Position numbers and translations under genes: made by a program. This document shows positions 22,478 through 30,299 of a stretch of 34,716 bases of DNA, one piece after another. Numbering within the stretch: position 1 is the stretch's first letter; each line of letters opens with the position of its first letter. The notes under the pieces were generated by a model. The model had not been told where the DNA came from. It searched no databases and saw only the letters and a list, made by a program, of their open reading frames with translations. The DNA comes from a virus. Taxonomy: Duplodnaviria; Caudoviricetes. The DNA is taken from positions 1 through 34,716 of the IMG/VR virus record IMGVR_UViG_3300012808_000019; one strand, given 5' to 3'.

Positions 22478-23029
22478 CTATTTCTTTAATGCTTTTTTGA
22501 TTTTGCTGGTGTAAACTTGGAACGGGACGATCTTATCGACTTTTTTCCCGTCGATCTCGAACTGGAGCACCGCTCGATCATTGGGCAGCTTTCCGTTTTC
22601 CTGAAAATACTTGTTCGATTTGAAGAAGTTGAAAAGCACAGCGTCTTTGGTTGCGCAGCGAAGGATGACCTTTGATTCGGGAGCAATTACAGTCGGTGGC
22701 GATACGCTGTTTACTTCCTTCACTTGGATTCCGATCACTCCACCTGCGTCAGCATTGACAACGGGAATGGTTTCTTCTGCTATAACGAAGTAGGAGGTGG
22801 GCCACTGGAATGATATCGCTTTGTCGGAATTGTTCCGGACATTGAAATAAACGTAGCCCATGGCCACATCGTGGATCGCTATCGATACGTCGTCATCTTT
22901 GTGCTTGTACTCCTTTGGAGTTTTGCCGTCGAACGCGACGCTGACACTTCCGATGTTTTTGCCGAACTCTTGAGAGTAACTCGACAAGCCGATAAATGCG
23001 ATAATCGTAGTTAACAAATATTCTTTCAT
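22478..23029 (-). CDS. Secreted hypothetical protein
   Basis: Signal peptide MKEYLLTTIIAFIGLSSYSQ. Confidence 0.7.
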   Translation of the reverse strand: MKEYLLTTIIAFIGLSSYSQEFGKNIGSVSVAFDGKTPKEYKHKDDDVSIAIHDVAMGYVYFNVRNNSDKAISFQWPTSYFVIAEETIPVVNADAGGVIGIQVKEVNSVSPPTVIAPESKVILRCATKDAVLFNFFKSNKYFQENGKLPNDRAVLQFEIDGKKVDKIVPFQVYTSKIKKALKK

Positions 23030-23491
23030 TTAGTATTTTCTTATTTTTTCATTTTTAATTGCCACCATGTCGTAAACACTTATGCCATTTGACAAAGCTG
23101 TATCAGACAGGTTAGAATCCGATGTTATAAGCGCTCTATATTCTTTAGCGGAGTGCAACAGAAGAGTGTCCGTTACACCCAAGATGCTGTATTCGTGTTT
23201 ATCTACGACGTCTAATGTCCCACGGTAAACTTCGGTGCATTCCTTTATTAATTGGATGGTTGTCTCTATGTACGGATACTTTAAATTTCCACTGAAATTG
23301 TTTAAAAGGTTATCTGTTTCAGTCCAAACGTTAGGGAGTATAATTAGATTTTTGATATCTCCAATAAAGTCTAGTAATTCATCAAAGTCATTTTCATCAA
23401 ACAGGCTTGTGCGTTTATGTTGAGATATTTGCCTCTTATCCATTGTTCCTATAATCAGCAGAACAAGCGCATTTGTGTCAATAACGAACAT
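23030..23491 (-). CDS. PIN-domain ribonuclease
   Basis: VIDTNAL, VWTE, LGVTD and LITSDSNL acidic PIN motifs. Confidence 0.85.
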   Translation of the reverse strand: MFVIDTNALVLLIIGTMDKRQISQHKRTSLFDENDFDELLDFIGDIKNLIILPNVWTETDNLLNNFSGNLKYPYIETTIQLIKECTEVYRGTLDVVDKHEYSILGVTDTLLLHSAKEYRALITSDSNLSDTALSNGISVYDMVAIKNEKIRKY

Positions 23492-23492
23492 T

Positions 23493-23768
23493 TTAATCTT
23501 TGTACATGTACATCCCTAGAAATTTACCGCTACTATCAAAGTGTAGCTTTTTGTACAACCGAACATACTGAAAATCCGAAGCCAACATCCCCAAAGCTCC
23601 GTGACTGCTTTTTTTATTAGTATTTGCCGATAAATAGGATACTACAATTTCCCAACGTTGATGAGTTTCGTTAAACTCTGCTTGCTCCAAACGTATATCT
23701 GGAGAATCTAGCGAAGTTATTTTAGAAATTTGCTCTATTGCAAGGCTTAGAAGTTTAGATAAATCCAT
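23493..23768 (-). CDS. Small partner of the PIN protein (putative antitoxin)
   Basis: 91 aa; stop lies 1 nt before the PIN start; DIRLEQAE...WEIVVSY...RLYK. Confidence 0.6.
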   Translation of the reverse strand: MDLSKLLSLAIEQISKITSLDSPDIRLEQAEFNETHQRWEIVVSYLSANTNKKSSHGALGMLASDFQYVRLYKKLHFDSSGKFLGMYMYKD

Positions 23769-23892
23769 ATTGTTTTTTAGCCTAATATACGGATATGTTG
23801 CAAATTATAGAGTGCGATTAACAACTCACTATCAAAAAACAGGGGATCGCGTAGTTAAATGACTACAAAATTATTACTATTCAAATATAAAT

Positions 23893-23923
23893 TTTGGTTA
23901 TTAAAAACCATTTATTAACTTTG
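23893..23923 (+). promoter_or_regulatory. Bacteroidetes sigma-A promoter
   Basis: TTTG-N19-TAACTTTG, matching the -33/-7 consensus. Confidence 0.7.
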
Positions 23924-23942
23924 AGTCATACTAAAAAGAAAG

Positions 23943-24440
23943 ATGGATATATATGGCATAAACAAAATCAATGAATACTCTAAAACTTTAGAATTTTTAG
24001 AGCATAAACTCGAGATTATAAAAAAGATTGAGAAGGAGATCGATGTACGGAATTATTACGAAATAGTGAATGACACCTACTTAGACGGAATAATTGAAAG
24101 ATATAGTTTTCTCCTTAAATCGGCATACTTCGAGTACAGCGACAACTTCAAAGAGATTATTTTAAAAGCCGCTAGAGACTACGAACCACACAAATACAAC
24201 GTTCCTATTTTCGCCGCTCTTAAAAGAAGGATATCGCGACAGATCGAACGGATTCGAAAAAAGAATTCGAGACGATTTATAGATTACAGGGTTAAAATTA
24301 GATCATTTGTTAACAGGATAATTAGAAAGAATACGGAGGAAGACTCGAACTATGTGGTACTACAAATTTTAAGTAATATTTTTTTTAACAAAACCACATC
24401 AAAGGAGTATGGACAAAGACCGTATTTTAGCAATAATTGA
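23943..24440 (+). CDS. Hypothetical basic protein
   Basis: 165 aa ORF downstream of a consensus promoter. Confidence 0.55.
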   Translation: MDIYGINKINEYSKTLEFLEHKLEIIKKIEKEIDVRNYYEIVNDTYLDGIIERYSFLLKSAYFEYSDNFKEIILKAARDYEPHKYNVPIFAALKRRISRQIERIRKKNSRRFIDYRVKIRSFVNRIIRKNTEEDSNYVVLQILSNIFFNKTTSKEYGQRPYFSNN

Positions 24441-24606
24441 TACCATGTTAGATGCAGATGACATTTCTAACAGTCACAAAGTTTCTCTAAAAATAATTAG
24501 ACAGGAAATCGACAGCAAAAATTCCAAGCTTTCTACAAAAGAAGCTATGGATATCAGTCTTCGAATTACACAAATATTTAGCAATTTTATGAGATTCTTT
24601 GATTAG
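24409..24606 (+). CDS. Small hypothetical protein
   Basis: 65 aa helical ORF preceded by AAAGGAG. Confidence 0.55.
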   Translation: MDKDRILAIIDTMLDADDISNSHKVSLKIIRQEIDSKNSKLSTKEAMDISLRITQIFSNFMRFFD

Positions 24607-24621
24607 CACTATTACTATTCA

Positions 24622-24915
24622 ATGAAAATTGGAAAAACTATCAAGGATTTAAGAAAATCCAAAGCGCTTAGTCAAAGCGAACTTTCAGGAAAGGCGGGAA
24701 TAACACAGACTGCTTTGTCACAAATAGAAGGGGATAAGAAGTTCCCTAGTCAAAGTACACTAGAGGCTCTTAGTGCCGCCTTAGGTGTCACTAATGCGGC
24801 TATCTATGTAATGTCGGCAACAGTTGACGATGTACCTGCTGAGAACAAAGAAACGTTCAATAAGCTTTACCCAAGCATCAAAAATATGTTGGAAGAGCTG
24901 TTTATCAAAAAATAA
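24622..24915 (+). CDS. XRE-family HTH regulator
   Basis: IGKTIKDLRKSKALSQSELS..AGITQTALSQIEG..KFPS..TLEALS..LGV. Confidence 0.9.
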   Translation: MKIGKTIKDLRKSKALSQSELSGKAGITQTALSQIEGDKKFPSQSTLEALSAALGVTNAAIYVMSATVDDVPAENKETFNKLYPSIKNMLEELFIKK

Positions 24916-25005
24916 ACAGCTCACCGGCATTTTTGGTCGAAAGCGCTTAGAGTACGTCATTTTACGGGATTTTAAAGAACAATACTTTATAACTATTCTT
25001 CCGGG

Positions 25006-25701
25006 TTATACATTGTTTTTAACGACCTTCCAAAATTCGTATGAGTTATTCGAATGCCTTTCCTTTATCACTTCTGCATCATCTAAATTTAGTTCAAAAT
25101 CAGATGTTTTTTGAGAAATGCCAATTACCTTAGCTTTGTGAATCAACAAATTACAAGCGTCAAAAATTAATGGTGATAGCTGCCTATAACTTACCAACTC
25201 TGCACTATAATTATTGTTAGTATTGTTATCAGCTAAAATAGAGAAAAGATTACCAAGGTAAGGGTCTATTGAATTTTTATCTAATCTACGCATCGTCAAA
25301 TGAAATCCATTTCCCTTTTTTAGATTGTAATCTGATATAAAACCTATTGCAGATCCCCCTAGGTCTAAATATAGATTGTAGAACATGGAATGTTCTATAC
25401 AATTTCCTACGTGCATAAAGCACTCTCTAGAAATGAATCTAGCTAAAGATACTGGTAAATGTGTCTTTAGCAACCAATAATACCCTCCAAATACTTCATT
25501 TATGTATATGTGGCAAAGCTCATGAAGAAAAGAGTTTTGATCAAGTCCGTTCAACCTTAATTCTATTGGATCAAATTTAGTTTGTGTAAATACTTCTGAA
25601 TATTTTTCGTCCCAAATTGTGATCTTTATTCTTCCATCTTTATTCAAAAGCTCCCATAATGGTCTGCTTTTATCTGTCAATAAATTTTCTATAATATCCA
25701 T
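25006..25701 (-). CDS. Putative zinc metallopeptidase-like protein
   Basis: FLHELCH (HExxH) with a downstream EH; AT-rich. Confidence 0.55.
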   Translation of the reverse strand: MDIIENLLTDKSRPLWELLNKDGRIKITIWDEKYSEVFTQTKFDPIELRLNGLDQNSFLHELCHIYINEVFGGYYWLLKTHLPVSLARFISRECFMHVGNCIEHSMFYNLYLDLGGSAIGFISDYNLKKGNGFHLTMRRLDKNSIDPYLGNLFSILADNNTNNNYSAELVSYRQLSPLIFDACNLLIHKAKVIGISQKTSDFELNLDDAEVIKERHSNNSYEFWKVVKNNV

Positions 25702-25839
25702 AACAAGTTTGAGTTACTTTGCTGATGAATATACAAACATCTCAACAAATAAAGAATAAGGGAAACCGTAATATTTTTAATGCTTTTTTTCTAACTTTAT
25801 CATTAATATATTTATTGAATTATTTATTAACCAAATCTT

Positions 25840-26997
25840 ATGGAAAATCTTGAAAGTACGAATACGGATGTCGATGCTCCTTTAGCGTCAGCAGACAATG
25901 TAGCAATTGAACTGCCAGCGGCACCTTCGAAGGAAGAACTAGAAGCTATTAGAATAGAGAAAGAAACAAAGCAACTTCTTGCCAATGTTTATTCTGATAA
26001 CATAACGGATACGAAAGATAGGGTAGCATCTATACTCAGTAAAAACATAAACGCTAGGAATTCAGATATTGAGCTCGCCTGGGCGTATTGGTTTAAATAT
26101 GAATCAGAATTGGTCCAAGGAGGATCTATCACTAAGAAAGCAATGTTGCAAGCAACGAAGATGTCAACCTTATGTAGAGAGCGAGCTAAGATTCAAAATG
26201 AGTACAAACTATTTCAAGCAGATGTAGAAGTAAAACAACAAAGAGGAACACTAGAAGGTGAGTTCAAAAAAAGGGCTATTAAAGATCGAGCACCTGAAAT
26301 TAAAAGCCTTTTTACATACATTGATGAGACGGGTAAAAATCAAGAATTCATTTCAGTTGGATCAGTATGGTTACCGACCTTCTCTAATTCAAGCTTTGCG
26401 CGAACCAAGGAAATTAAACAGTGGAAAGAGTATTCGGACATTAAGTACGAATTTCATTTTGCCGAGCTTCGCGCCAATCAACTAGAAAGGTATAAAGAAT
26501 TCGTTGCAAAATTTTTAATGCTATTTCCTGAAGTTAGTTTCAAAACTATAATAATAAAGAAAGAGGGGCTTGGCAATGTTGAGGAGGCAATAAATAACCT
26601 AACTTACTTTTTGATAAGAAAAGGGGTCGATCATGAGCATTCATCAAATAGAGCACCTTTACCACGATCACTTTTTGTAACTATCGATGATGAGAATGAA
26701 GCAAAAGACGCTCTTAAGTTGGAAAACATCAAAGATAAGTTAGAAGCTCAAAAAATTGAAGGGTTAACGTTAGGTAACTTTGTAGCCGTTCCTTCTCGCG
26801 GAAATGAATACATACAAATTGTAGACTTATTTATTGGAGCGATCAACCGGAAGTTACATTTTCCCGATGGTAATGGACATAAAGACGAGCTAGCAAATTT
26901 TATTCTGGATCAACTAGGCCTAAATATCAATGATTATTTGAATGATCAAGTAATAGGCGACGATTTAAAAATGTTTAGCTTCCTAAAGAATGAATAG
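25840..26997 (+). CDS. DUF3800-family protein with N-terminal extension
   Basis: YIDETG, EFHF, TIDDE and IQIVDLFIG (QxxD) motifs. Confidence 0.85.
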   Translation: MENLESTNTDVDAPLASADNVAIELPAAPSKEELEAIRIEKETKQLLANVYSDNITDTKDRVASILSKNINARNSDIELAWAYWFKYESELVQGGSITKKAMLQATKMSTLCRERAKIQNEYKLFQADVEVKQQRGTLEGEFKKRAIKDRAPEIKSLFTYIDETGKNQEFISVGSVWLPTFSNSSFARTKEIKQWKEYSDIKYEFHFAELRANQLERYKEFVAKFLMLFPEVSFKTIIIKKEGLGNVEEAINNLTYFLIRKGVDHEHSSNRAPLPRSLFVTIDDENEAKDALKLENIKDKLEAQKIEGLTLGNFVAVPSRGNEYIQIVDLFIGAINRKLHFPDGNGHKDELANFILDQLGLNINDYLNDQVIGDDLKMFSFLKNE

Positions 26998-27001
26998 TAA
27001 A

Positions 27002-27138
27002 TAAAAAACATCACCGCTGGAAAAAAGGACGATGAAGTCGGGAAAATAATAAAACCCTGCGCCCTCGGTCAAGCATTTATGACCCCTTATTGCTTACTTA
27101 CTTTGCTCAACCCAACTCGTGGGTAGTGATGTTTTTTA
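27002..27138 (+). ncRNA. Candidate DUF3800-associated structured RNA
   Basis: 13-bp perfect closing inverted repeat TAAAAAACATCAC/GTGATGTTTTTTA enclosing several short hairpins; starts 5 nt after the DUF3800 stop. Confidence 0.55.
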
Positions 27139-27143
27139 ATTTG

Positions 27144-27215
27144 CAGGTGTGGGCAGATTCGAACTGCCGGTGTCGGTTTTGGAGACCGATGCCTTACCAA
27201 CTTGGCTACACACCC
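27144..27215 (-). tRNA. trnW: tRNA-Trp(CCA)
   Basis: GGGTGTG TA GCCAAGTTGGTAAGGC A TCGGT CTCCAAA ACCGA CACC GGCAG TTCGAAT CTGCC CACACCT G; full cloverleaf, G discriminator, CCA end not encoded. Confidence 0.9.
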
Positions 27216-27227
27216 TTTTTGCCATTT

Positions 27228-27338
27228 CTAGCGATTGCTTTTCCTGCTGCGGAGATATCGCCATAGCTCCCGATAGATGATTATCCCAATAGGGATAACG
27301 AAGATGATCAGGATCACGAAAGCATATGTATACCTCAT
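27228..27338 (-). CDS. Small single-TM peptide (36 aa)
   Basis: MRYTYAFVILIIFVIPIGIIIYRELWRYLRSRKSNR; ATG 4 nt after the upstream stop. Confidence 0.55.
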   Translation of the reverse strand: MRYTYAFVILIIFVIPIGIIIYRELWRYLRSRKSNR

Positions 27339-27342
27339 GGCT

Positions 27343-27750
27343 TCACTTCCTCGCTTCCAGTATCGGTATGCCAGCCTCTGTAGGAACATAGATCTTATCG
27401 CCTTTACTGTTCCTGATGGCATCGATCTGCAGATACTTTAGATACTCGCTGTTGCCTTTGAGTGATTCGCCGATGATCTTGTTCGCTTCGGCCACTCCCT
27501 TGGCGCGTTCGACTTCCGCCTGGGCTTCGGCTTTCGCGATCTTGATCTTTGCCTCCGCTTGCAGCGTTGCGCTTTCGTTTTCCGCTTTAGCTTGTTCAAC
27601 CATCGCTTTTTTGGAGTTCTCCGCTTCGACCAGCGTCGCCTTTCCATTGTTTTCCGCGTCTTTTAAGCGCTGCTCTCGGGAGAAATCATAACAAGATGTC
27701 ACAGACATCAACAATGCGCATAGCGCGAACATTAAACCTACTCTTTTCAT
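27343..27750 (-). CDS. Lipoprotein resembling the C-terminal coiled-coil of SPFH/band-7 'membrane protease subunit' phage proteins
   Basis: Lipobox VTSC; AEAQAEVERAKGVAEANKIIGESL..YLKYL..IYVPTEAGIPILEA. Confidence 0.75.
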   Translation of the reverse strand: MKRVGLMFALCALLMSVTSCYDFSREQRLKDAENNGKATLVEAENSKKAMVEQAKAENESATLQAEAKIKIAKAEAQAEVERAKGVAEANKIIGESLKGNSEYLKYLQIDAIRNSKGDKIYVPTEAGIPILEARK

Positions 27751-27771
27751 GTTAAAGAACTAATTAGTGAG

Positions 27772-27879
27772 CGGAGCAGGAGGGAATCGAACACCTCGCA
27801 ACCAACATAACCACATAACCGAAAGGGAATCATCCTTCAAGTTTTACGAGCGACTAACTTCAAATGTGATCACTGCTCC
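27772..27879 (-). ncRNA. tRNA-like element A (acceptor and T arm; D and anticodon arms replaced)
   Basis: GGAGCAG/CTGCTCC-G acceptor; GAGGTG-TTCGATT-CCCTC T arm with a bulge; internal helix GATCACAT/ATGTGGTT. Confidence 0.65.
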
Positions 27880-27886
27880 AAATTTT

Positions 27887-28150
27887 GCCGGTCTGTTCCC
27901 GGCTGTCAACCTATCCTCAGTAATAATCTATCTACCGTTAGCGCCTTTTTACTGATCCATCTACGTCTTTCCGTATATCGTCAGATAGCATCGATTAGAA
28001 CTTACTTTCAGTGTTCGTCTGACAATTTGCGTTGCGACAGGAGCCGGAATCGAACCGACTATCAAGGTGTGATTTATTACTCCGCCTACGGAACCTTTTG
28101 TTTTACCATTTACAACATCCTGTCAAATGCTCGTCTTTCCGAGCCGCCAG
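27887..28150 (-). repeat. Three copies of a YTGRCR-stem-GAA(C)AGA-stem hairpin motif (27887-27909, 27961-27984, 28129-28150)
   Basis: TTGACA GCCGG GAACAGA CCGGC; CTGACGATA TACG GAAAGA CGTA; CTGGCG GCTCG GAAAGA CGAGC. Confidence 0.7.
28035..28124 (-). ncRNA. tRNA-like element B (expanded 24-nt anticodon loop)
   Basis: GACAGGA/TCCTGTC-G; D arm TTGTAAATGGTAAAACAA; AAGGT/ACCTT stem around 24 nt; GTCGG-TTCGATT-CCGGC. Confidence 0.75.
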
Positions 28151-28316
28151 TCTTTGTGGAAAATAGGGTGAATGTAATATTACTTGTTACCCCCATTCGT
28201 AATAGATAGTAATTAATTCTCTACAAGCAACAGGAAACAATCTATCACTATTAACCACCGAACTCTGAACCCGACAAGGTTCAACGCTTTAATGTAACAA
28301 AACCTGTTGCTTCGTG

Positions 28317-28375
28317 TGGAGAAGGGCGGACTCGAACCACCGACCTAACGTTCTAACCAACTGAACTACTTCCCC
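28317..28375 (-). ncRNA. tRNA-like element C (anticodon arm deleted)
   Basis: GGGGAAG TA GTTC AGTTGGTTA GAAC GTT AGGTC GGTGG TTCGAGT CCGCC CTTCTCC A; 59 nt. Confidence 0.8.
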
Positions 28376-28442
28376 AAATGTACCGCGGGAAACGGGGAGG
28401 ATCCCGCGGGTACCAAACCAATTATTAACCTAAATTATGAAG

Positions 28443-28560
28443 TGGAAAGAGCAGGATTCGAACCTGCACGTTAAGACCCTTTGTTTCAACCGCACGCTCA
28501 TCATCGCGGTGTATTACTTAACTTTTCCTACTTAGCGTCTACCAATTCCGCCATCTTTCC
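28443..28560 (-). ncRNA. tRNA-like element D (Leu-type scaffold, anticodon/variable region replaced)
   Basis: GGAAAGA/TCTTTCC-A; D arm GGCGGAATTGGTAGACGC; GCAGG-TTCGAAT-CCTGC; ~65-nt insert with GTTAAG/CTTAAC and ACCGC/GCGGT stems. Confidence 0.75.
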
Positions 28561-28735
28561 AATTGGCATACTATTACAGATTTCAAAGCCGAATACCTCA
28601 AGGGTCTTACATCGGAACGTTCTTCACGTTGTGGTATGCCAGCACTTTAGAATGTCAAAGAAAAGACGGATGTCCAACCGACTACGTGTCGCTAATCTTC
28701 TCGAACTTGGACTGTCTTGATGTCTTTCGATAGTT

Positions 28736-28766
28736 CAAAGGTAGAAAACTGTTTTTATATATGCAA
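28736..28766 (-). promoter_or_regulatory. Bacteroidetes sigma-A promoter upstream of the RNA array
   Basis: Minus strand TTG-N20-TACCTTTG just downstream of the portal stop. Confidence 0.65.
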
Positions 28767-28796
28767 GAAAAACTATATAATTATTATACTTTTCAG

Positions 28797-30299
28797 TTAT
28801 ATTTTTGGTTCCGAGTCTGCCTTTGCTTCTTTAGCCATCTGTAGATCCTGTTTCGCTTCCGCAAGGATCTGCTCTAGCTCTGCCTCTACGTCTGAAACTT
28901 CGCCAAGCATCGTCATAGCTGTCTTGCGGCTGAGAAGCTTTGATGTTACCATTTTGGACACATCGCCGATCAGTTCTGTCTTATTGACTGGCAGCGCATC
29001 TTTAAACTTGATGGATGGCAATAGGCTGTCCATGTCGTCGAACTCCGCAGGAGAGAAGCTGATCAGCATCTTTTTGATCACGTTCAGGCGGCGAACAAGC
29101 ATTTCCTTTAAACGCTTTTGGTTCTTGTTGCCCTTCAATTGTGGCCCCATGAAAAGGAGACGGAGTGCGATGCCGCTGGTCCCGTTGCTCATGAGCTGTG
29201 ACATAGTGTTGAAACTAATGTCCGGCGTGTTAGTGATATCGAATTGCTCTTGTTTAAGCTTATCGAACTCCATTTTCTTAGAATCGACCATAGCATCCGG
29301 CTGGGCAAAGGAAACGCTACCACGTCCGCCGTTCTCGCCTTTAACCTGCATAACTTTTGCGACTTCGCCTTTGGACGGGAGGCTCTCCGCTTCGCCTTCA
29401 ACCACCATTGTAGGATCACCGTAGTAGTCGTTCGTATCGGCAAGGTTCGAAACGTTGTTTTCCTCTCGGTCGGCGAGCGGCTGGATGTTAGCCCACTCTG
29501 GACGCTTTTGGGAGTGGTAAATTATCGGAAGAAAGCCGTAGCCGGGTTTCTCTTCGGTTGTCCAGTCAGCGCCATCTACTTGACTACCTAGCAAAATAGT
29601 GTCAGCTGTATAAAAGTCGAAATGCAGCGTTTTGATATCAGTAATGGGGTTGACCGTCTGATATCTCCGACCGAAAGCGATAAGCCCATCATGTTCATCC
29701 CATACAGGGAAGATGTCATCACCGTTTTCTTTGCAAAGGAGCATCATGCCCGGGCGGCGCTCGCTACCTTCGAGCGGGGTGCCCTTCCAGTAATCTGCAT
29801 CAAGAAAGTCGTACCACAGCTCCGCACAGTGCGTTTCGATCATGCGGCGCTCGACGATATCCTCTGTTTTGTAGGAAAGCTTATTGTCGGTCCATACTTT
29901 CTTGATTAGGTCAAAGAAAGCCGTCTCGCTTTCCTCTTCACTATTAAAATCGATCGTAATGTCGGAGCCGCACTCAAAGAATACAGCTGATTGTACGATC
30001 TGCTGTTGGCGCGCGAGCTGCAGGCGGTTTACCTCGACTTCTTCATAGGATGTGCTTACCTTGGTATCCTTATTCTCGGACACGGCGTTTTCGTATTCTT
30101 CTCCCTCGAACTCAAGCTTTCGGTTCTCGCGAATGGCCGGATCGTTCACGTCATGCAAGAACGGATCATACTGGCGCATGGCCTGCTCAACGGTCATTGT
30201 TTTGGTTCCAAGCTTAATTACTCGTTGGCCTTTGCTTATAACTTCGTAAAGCTTGGCGTAATCGCCTGATAATAATAGTTGTAGTTGTTCAACTGTCAT
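28797..30299 (-). CDS. Portal protein (SPP1 gp6-like)
   Basis: 500 aa after TerL; ADTNDYYGDP, TPDISF, TSGIALRLLF, SRKTA motifs. Confidence 0.9.
   Translation of the reverse strand: MTVEQLQLLLSGDYAKLYEVISKGQRVIKLGTKTMTVEQAMRQYDPFLHDVNDPAIRENRKLEFEGEEYENAVSENKDTKVSTSYEEVEVNRLQLARQQQIVQSAVFFECGSDITIDFNSEEESETAFFDLIKKVWTDNKLSYKTEDIVERRMIETHCAELWYDFLDADYWKGTPLEGSERRPGMMLLCKENGDDIFPVWDEHDGLIAFGRRYQTVNPITDIKTLHFDFYTADTILLGSQVDGADWTTEEKPGYGFLPIIYHSQKRPEWANIQPLADREENNVSNLADTNDYYGDPTMVVEGEAESLPSKGEVAKVMQVKGENGGRGSVSFAQPDAMVDSKKMEFDKLKQEQFDITNTPDISFNTMSQLMSNGTSGIALRLLFMGPQLKGNKNQKRLKEMLVRRLNVIKKMLISFSPAEFDDMDSLLPSIKFKDALPVNKTELIGDVSKMVTSKLLSRKTAMTMLGEVSDVEAELEQILAEAKQDLQMAKEAKADSEPKI

Follow-up and report, generated by a model that had tools for sequence, protein, structure and literature searches.

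Several RNAs adopt the shape of a tRNA without taking part in decoding. In eukaryotes, mascRNA and menRNA (from MALAT1 and MEN-beta, respectively) are ~58-59 nts long and retain the tRNA elbow (PMC11693755, PMC9976931). Their maturation by RNase P, RNase Z and CCA addition was demonstrated, and mascRNA keeps an anticodon-like stem-loop while the linker residues of the core and the larger part of the D arm are gone (PMC11693755). The t-elements of plant mitochondria are tRNA-like folds with a T-arm motif in longer transcripts, which are likely substrates of RNase P/Z and whose termini correspond to mapped ends of mRNAs (Forner et al. 2007, PMC1920247). The tRNA-like domain of tmRNA has a G3-U70 alanine acceptor and a T arm but no anticodon, and is accompanied by a deformed D arm, a tag reading frame and pseudoknots (PMC3985003). 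The YrlA Y RNAs of bacteria and phages mimic the D arm, T arm and acceptor of tRNA; they are 80-130 nts long, contain a Ro60-binding stem and are encoded beside the Ro60 gene (Chen et al. 2014, PMC4201824). Phage T5 encodes RNA1, RNA2 and RNA3, non-decoding RNAs interleaved with tRNAs and other stable RNAs and recorded as 'tRNA-like stable RNA with unknown functions' (AY543070). Together with the irregular tRNA polycistrons of Mukai et al. (PMC5389517), they form the closest precedent for the whole array described below.

The window analyzed here is the complete 34,716-nt contig of a Caudoviricetes virus (IMG/VR record IMGVR_UViG_3300012808_000019). It contains a 59-nt element that, judged from comparative sequence data, is a real and selected member of a widespread and structurally conserved phage family. 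As a non-decoding tRNA mimic the element can be likened to mascRNA, t-elements, YrlA and the tmRNA domain, but it departs from mascRNA, YrlA and tmRNA in a defining feature of each. It is the reverse of mascRNA, with no anticodon-equivalent stem-loop and with the core residues present, and was therefore not placed in that class; moreover, it comes from a phage and not from a eukaryote, and the RNase P, RNase Z and CCA steps are predictions here. It shares with t-elements the T-arm motif within an acceptor-like stem. The phage family differs from them by its uniform, fully conserved tRNA core and by being usually single-copy. A tmRNA was rejected because neither ARAGORN nor Rfam gave a tmRNA match and the 4-bp D stem is normal; a tag reading frame and pseudoknots are likewise missing, and G3-U70, invariant in tmRNA and present in this copy, is rare in the armless family. 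An assignment to the YrlA/Y RNAs was rejected on the length of 59 nts, the free acceptor ends and the lack of a YrlA match up to E 10. No Ro60-binding stem was seen, and no Ro60 (TROVE) gene was matched among the 37 ORFs of the window, a contig that may be incomplete. The T5 RNAs (144, 125 and 73 nts) have expanded or altered middles and resemble the long neighbours of the element rather than the element itself. In the T5 tRNA region, the family model R1 (see below) gave no full-model match of 57-65 nts and one 51-nt match inside RNA2 (17 bits).

Rfam 15 holds no dedicated family, and members score as generic tRNA alone. No description of such a phage family was found in the full texts searched, a scope short of subscription journals and the older T4/T5 papers, nor in the accessible portions of PMC13434031, PMC7609411, PMC9897764, PMC12482277 and PMC10690425. 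Likewise, the accessible portion of Mukai et al. (PMC5389517) describes no armless form. None of four short motifs occurs in the 6 supplementary files of PMC10690425 that were searched; files 1, 2 and 4, outside this scope, may hold the family.

Anatomy of the 59-nt element

The element passes the gathering score of Rfam model RF00005 (46.6 bits, E 2.8e-8, gathering 29), and its acceptor, D arm, T arm and core bases are all present (Table 1). In this alignment, the 17-nt anticodon arm of the model is reduced to 2 bases; the anticodon stem and 7-nt loop are absent, hence the element was not filed as a tRNA. ARAGORN made no call on it, and family model R1, which was built partly from the element, scores it at 66.9 bits. 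The minimum free energy and centroid structures coincide, with a 7-bp acceptor, a 4-bp D stem with a 9-nt loop and a 5-bp T stem with a 7-nt loop (-17.6 kcal/mol). Since the folding z-score is weak when taken alone (-1.5, with 16 of 200 shuffles folding equally well), the support beyond chance comes from the Rfam score and from comparative data. CCA is not encoded, and CAC comes after A73.

The first-pass annotation had claimed a 59-nt tRNA without an anticodon arm and given no strand; the Rfam score and the fold confirm this claim and place the element on the minus strand. It had also read GTT as the remnant of the arm, which holds for the two T residues, while the G is position 26, outside the arm and facing A44. 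As G26 and A44-C48 are kept, the missing part corresponds exactly to positions 27-43. The view that the element cannot decode, keeps the elbow and forms a minimal tRNA mimic is supported by the presence of the elbow and core bases and by the covariation of the 15:48 pair across the family.

Table 1. Features of the element and of the surrounding RNA array (window coordinates).
Feature	Position	Strand	Basis or remark
SPP1-type portal gene, upstream of array	28797..30299	-	PF05133
Promoter-like motif (TTG, spacer, TAnnTTTG), head of array	28736..28766	-	motif match
Irregular tRNA-like element, 118 nts: long non-anticodon insert enclosed by the acceptor, a D-arm-like start and the T arm	28443..28560	-	interior differs among relatives
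GC-rich hairpin module, directly upstream of the 59-nt element	28380..28414	-	sequence; also precedes the slot in L002 and L003
Anticodon-arm-less tRNA-like gene, whole, 59 nts	28317..28375	-	Rfam match, fold, family model R1
Acceptor 5′ strand, positions 1-7	28369..28375	-	sequence and fold; 7 bp with 28318-28324, including G2-C71, G3-U70, G4-C69
U8, A9 and D arm (4-bp stem; loop A14, G15, G18, G19, U20, A21)	28350..28368	-	sequence, Rfam, fold
8-nt connector: G26, 2 bases for the anticodon arm, A44-C48 variable loop	28342..28349	-	sequence, Rfam
T arm: 5-bp stem with one U-G pair, canonical T loop	28325..28341	-	Rfam, fold
Acceptor 3′ strand and discriminator A73; C at 74	28317..28324	-	sequence
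90-nt irregular tRNA-like element; ARAGORN: Leu-TAG, anticodon region irregular	28035..28124	-	ARAGORN, Rfam
~108-nt tRNA-like element, 7-bp acceptor, irregular T arm	27772..27879	-	by eye, fold; same element in L003
Canonical tRNA-Trp(CCA), last tRNA in array	27144..27215	-	ARAGORN

Genome setting and RNA array

The minus strand of the contig encodes the terminase, SPP1-type portal, major capsid, tail and amidase, and three close relatives have been assigned to the proviruses. No gene for head morphogenesis could be recognised past the portal gene of the window. A mostly non-coding array of 1.7 kb (27050-28790, minus strand) separates the portal stop (28797) from a convergent DUF3800 gene. 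It combines tRNAs with irregular tRNA-like frames and further structured modules in a mosaic, headed by one conserved promoter-like motif. All 10 related loci that were examined have this motif in the corresponding place, and the whole window has 6 matches to it; it is of the Bacteroidota promoter type. The host would then belong to the Bacteroidota, and the array would be expressed from 28766-28736. A scan of the array for sigma-70 promoters returned 5 sites, where 3.3 are expected, and was thus uninformative.

Three array neighbours of the 59-nt element are irregular tRNA-like RNAs too, and the array elements of this lineage, which range from 52 to 132 nts, have little beyond the acceptor and T arm in common. 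Array modules are swapped between related phages at short acceptor-stem homologies. A tRNA fragment left at an att site was rejected, since both ends of the element are present, its middle is missing and it is located inside the genome behind the portal gene.

A structured module with a GGCATAC/GTATGCC closing stem (28563-28645, minus strand) is found near the array head in most relatives. A hairpin with a conserved AAATGCT loop and a G-rich tract, possibly a pseudoknot, occurs one to two times per array (27050-27110, minus strand, and the array heads of L002 and L007-L012); neither module matches Rfam. The 31-mer at 28411-28441 is also present on several extra short contigs of runs X1, X10 and X11 at much higher depth, and is thus likely an element with several copies in hosts or other phages. 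The relatives L002 (7901-7969), L007 (8428-8497) and L008 (2593-2662) encode tRNA-like elements of 69-70 nts in which the anticodon arm is a short hairpin with a GAAA-type loop, and which ARAGORN miscalls as Phe at low threshold. Inside the array, a 135-aa ORF (27343-27750, minus strand) with a lipoprotein-like N terminus and a coiled-coil-like body is kept in relatives, e.g., L010, and has no Pfam match. A low-GC accessory island with DUF3800, PIN-domain and HTH genes (22478-26997) lies between the array and the head genes.

Independent copies in other phages

The first-pass annotation had suggested a search for independent armless copies and named a deletion unique to this genome or assembly, with the full tRNA in close relatives and no stable RNA, as the result that would speak against its reading. 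Armless copies with structure-preserving changes were found in provirus L012, in run X11 from another study and in the cultured Polaribacter phage Danklef, which rules out an assembly artefact. In run X11, one contig covers 28116-28440 with 9 differences, 2 of which are within the element (U-G to U-A and G-C to G-U) and keep the pairing. In L012, whose portal is 71% identical, the copy has the same acceptor, a compensated D stem and a different connector. The Danklef copy (MT732458.1, 43546-43603) is 58 nts long and 88% identical, with the same acceptor and a compensated T stem. It bears the automatic annotation 'tRNA-OTHER, Undet_(NNN)', and the accessible text of the Danklef paper merely counts one tRNA (PMC8776804). 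Runs X1-X4 were left out of this count, as they may be the same source. None of the sequencing runs listed as carrying the sequence is an RNA run, which has no bearing on expression.

The array slot of the 59-nt element is occupied by a 91-nt irregular element in L002, L003 and runs X7 and X9, and a full tRNA-Asn stands at the site of the L012 armless copy in L007, L008 and L010. The armless form is thus dispensable or replaceable, which suits a role as a cutting signal (discussed below) equally well. An exact-flank search of viral contigs for a full-length parent gave 0 matches.

A family of armless tRNA-like genes

A first pattern, requiring D-loop and T-loop motifs at armless spacing and nothing else, returned 107 loci in viral contigs, 106 of which were re-found by script. 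With a structure filter set at 5 or more of the 7 acceptor pairs, 99 of these passed; the others were 3 full tRNA-Thr genes and 4 failures. The 5′ strand of the D stem with U8-A9 was no part of the pattern, yet 100 of the 106 loci have it. A scan of GTDB returned 120 loci, of which 7 passed, 109 were false matches to full tRNA-Thr(GGT) and 4 failed otherwise; locus L221 passed the filter but was dropped for an N in its connector. The anticodon loop of tRNA-Thr(GGT) mimics a D loop (L164-L283, Chloroflexota and others) and is the main false positive for armless-tRNA patterns. Among the 120 matches listed for each of two relaxed viral scans, 17 and 57 passed while 103 and 63 failed, the commonest failures shown being mis-registered full tRNAs. 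A rough scaling, based on an estimated ~1000 + 730 stretches, suggests ~500 viral stretches with two T-loop types.

The pooled family comprises at least 128 distinct members of 57-65 nts, mostly viral, with a connector mode of 8-9 nts, and the first viral scan gave one match per locus in 80 of 80 listed loci. BLAST of family members against plasmids returned none; against phages, L398 and L449 returned none and L100 only full tRNA-Arg or flanks. A family-member query found 30 Lactococcus phage records, including P335, bIL309, TP712 and ul36, in which the copies are unannotated as RNA. The three Lactococcus phages examined carry a 61-nt variant with a slightly irregular D stem (53-57 bits with R1). 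The family defines a uniform natural minimal tRNA core of ~58 nts that selection has kept in many unrelated phages and that annotation has missed or mislabelled. An engineered tRNA scaffold exists, and the armless family is its natural counterpart, with the long neighbours in the window as loaded versions.

Conservation of the core and of the remodelled junction

In 77 distinct aligned members, 97.6% of 1232 stem cells are paired, with 377 double changes in total, and each of the 7 acceptor pairs shows such changes. At least 6 acceptor pairs form in 74 of the 77, compared with 3.8 for shuffled partners (as members are related, the shuffle and Fisher values overstate significance). The 15:48 tertiary pair, in 61 members found without specifying base 48, is G-C in 36, A-U in 22 and other in 3, and is kept in 19 of 20 after redundancy reduction. 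The pair that caps the stump (register 26:44, possibly 27:43) is Watson-Crick in 75 of 127 members, where shuffling predicts 41, and in 32 of 57 after redundancy reduction, where 18 are expected. Of 183 full-length tRNAs at these loci, other than Thr(GGT) and Ala, 13 have a Watson-Crick pair in this position, and a capping C-G is found in 54 family members versus 0 of 318 full tRNAs. A control shifted by one base yielded 54 of 125, and composition therefore contributes to the capping signal; the capping pair of the 59-nt element itself is G-A, like in ordinary tRNAs. Because the capping pair is common in the family and rare in full tRNAs, members are mostly remodelled at the junction and not merely deleted. 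Taken together, the comparative data argue that selection acts on the shape, across free acceptor sequences.

At the 3′ end, C is found at position 74 in 52% of the 128 members, versus 17-23% at positions 75-79 and 77-83% in real tRNAs, an excess that would fit selection on a CCA-type end. Among the 128 members, 10 encode CCA and 19 have an open base pair 1-72.

Alternatively, slippage or recombination could remove the anticodon hairpin from phage tRNA genes time and again, leaving pseudogenes or crossover points in mosaic arrays. The exchange of modules at acceptor-stem homologies agrees with this neutral origin, and the very diverse acceptors are compatible with repeated origins. However, no more than 4 of the 103 non-Thr viral matches fail the structure filter, the junction carries a capping pair that full tRNAs almost never have, and both changes of the run X11 allele preserve pairing. 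In addition, the nearest of the 318 full tRNAs differs at 5 of 40 frame positions, and the covariation is left unexplained. A neutral relic is therefore very unlikely.

Possible function in trans or in cis

A tRNA-shaped gene unable to decode isolates the non-decoding part of the answer to the open question why phages have tRNA genes at all. The best reading of these sequences, with a probability of about 0.45, is a processed, stable, non-decoding mini-tRNA that acts as a decoy. The element would be transcribed from the own promoter of the array and cut at base 1 by host RNase P; 3′ nucleases would trim the end and CCA would be added, steps that are common to the leading readings. The product, a presumably stable mini-tRNA of ~62 nts, would compete in trans for host enzymes that hold a tRNA by its elbow, acceptor stem or 3′ end, the most plausible, albeit speculative, targets being tRNA-attacking anti-phage enzymes. 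The absence of an anticodon should confer immunity to anticodon nucleases, yet an armless RNA could not replace a cleaved tRNA, so that its benefit would have to come from competition for enzymes acting on the tRNA body or 3′ end.

The neighbourhood of the members was surveyed for partners and promoters. No protein partner was shared among 118 neighbouring ORFs, no defence gene co-occurred, and promoter-like motifs within 150 nts upstream were not enriched across the family (17 versus 10-18 of 123). Of the distinct members with long flanks, 23 of 62 lie within 1 kb of an ARAGORN tRNA. The nearest neighbour is a terminase, portal, late activator or terminase-type HNH gene in 14 of 56 viral loci (9 beside a packaging gene, 5 by association), a count that does not in itself speak for enrichment. 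In bIL309 and D2950, the armless copy follows the lysin gene, and in bIL309 it stands ~360 nts behind a perfect (12/12) sigma-70 promoter match. In the lactococcal phages examined, no annotated same-strand gene is directly downstream of the copy, and unannotated short open frames are present.

The fold could also act in cis as a cutting signal, comparable to t-elements or to mascRNA-like punctuation, where it would mark RNase P and 3′ nuclease cuts that free or end neighbouring RNAs or messages and the mini-tRNA would be a by-product. This role, which accounts for much of the same data, is possible, although we give it less weight than the decoy. RNase P gauges the length of the acceptor-T stack from the elbow, irrespective of sequence and anticodon (PMC4919913), in line with the free acceptor sequences of the family, and precedents for such cutting exist (PMC1920247, PMC11693755). 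The acceptor and T arm are the only constant of the array slots in this lineage, and slots are exchanged. The L060, L096, L103 and Danklef copies are closely flanked on both sides by ORFs of the same strand, and the arrangement in the lactococcal phages also recalls mascRNA, which ends an upstream RNA. Moreover, RNase P prefers U at position -1, which is the commonest base there (56 of 128 members).

Against a cutting signal, the complete D arm is retained, together with the 15:48 and capping pairs, and these features covary. The element is usually present once per locus and not repeated at gene junctions, and the 23 members near true tRNAs are located where cut sites already exist. The whole tRNA core exceeds the needs of a cut site, and the D loop appears dispensable for RNase P (PMC4919913). 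The decoy is favoured because the whole core and the new capping pair are kept and because the gene is usually single, often among true tRNAs and can end a non-coding unit. It is disfavoured by the C74 frequency below that of real tRNAs, the occasional opening of pair 1-72, the variable slot in relatives and the lack of upstream promoter enrichment. The copies in cultured lactococcal (bIL309, ul36 and P335) and Polaribacter phages make the choice between decoy and cutting signal testable.

Acceptor identity

The 59-nt element carries A73, G2-C71, G3-U70 and G4-C69, which form the bacterial alanine acceptor set (PMC9976931). It lacks G20, with a U after G18-G19. Among the metagenome matches to its 5′ half, 92 of 119 are tRNA-Ala with this acceptor type. 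Across the 128 members, G3-U70 occurs in 10 and the full alanine set in 4, and G-U pairs number 4-8 at each other acceptor position. A family-wide alanine identity was rejected, as G3-U70 is found in just these 10 members. Furthermore, the 112 different acceptor heptamers and the use of all four discriminators (A 64, G 26, U 20 and C 18) rule out a single amino acid identity for the family.

AlaRS does not read the anticodon, hence this copy could be charged and serve as a codon-independent alanyl donor or as a ligand of EF-Tu or SmpB, like a free-standing tRNA-like domain of tmRNA. The full acceptor set and the tRNA-Ala matches favour such a carrier, as do L012 and Danklef, in which the acceptor is identical while the D stem, T stem and connector differ. 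However, the identity of these three acceptors may stem from a tRNA-Ala ancestor or from slot homology, G20 is absent, and charging is possible without being the function. In addition, tmRNA binds SmpB via its deformed D arm (PMC3985003) while the D stem of the element is normal, and the rarity of G3-U70 makes the proposal applicable to this branch only. We regard an alanine carrier as improbable. A joint reading would have minimal tRNA-core RNAs, in phages across several bacterial phyla, acting as uncleavable decoys against tRNA-attacking host defences, with the alanine-acceptor branch charged by AlaRS and delivering alanine without a codon; it appears doubtful, although less so than the carrier by itself.

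Alanine-type acceptors (G3-U70, A73) were also observed in full viral tRNAs with non-alanine anticodons (L650, L647, L654, L678 and L680; GCA in 5 loci, GCT, GAT, CTA and ACA). From their sequences, such tRNAs could place alanine at other codons or at amber stops.
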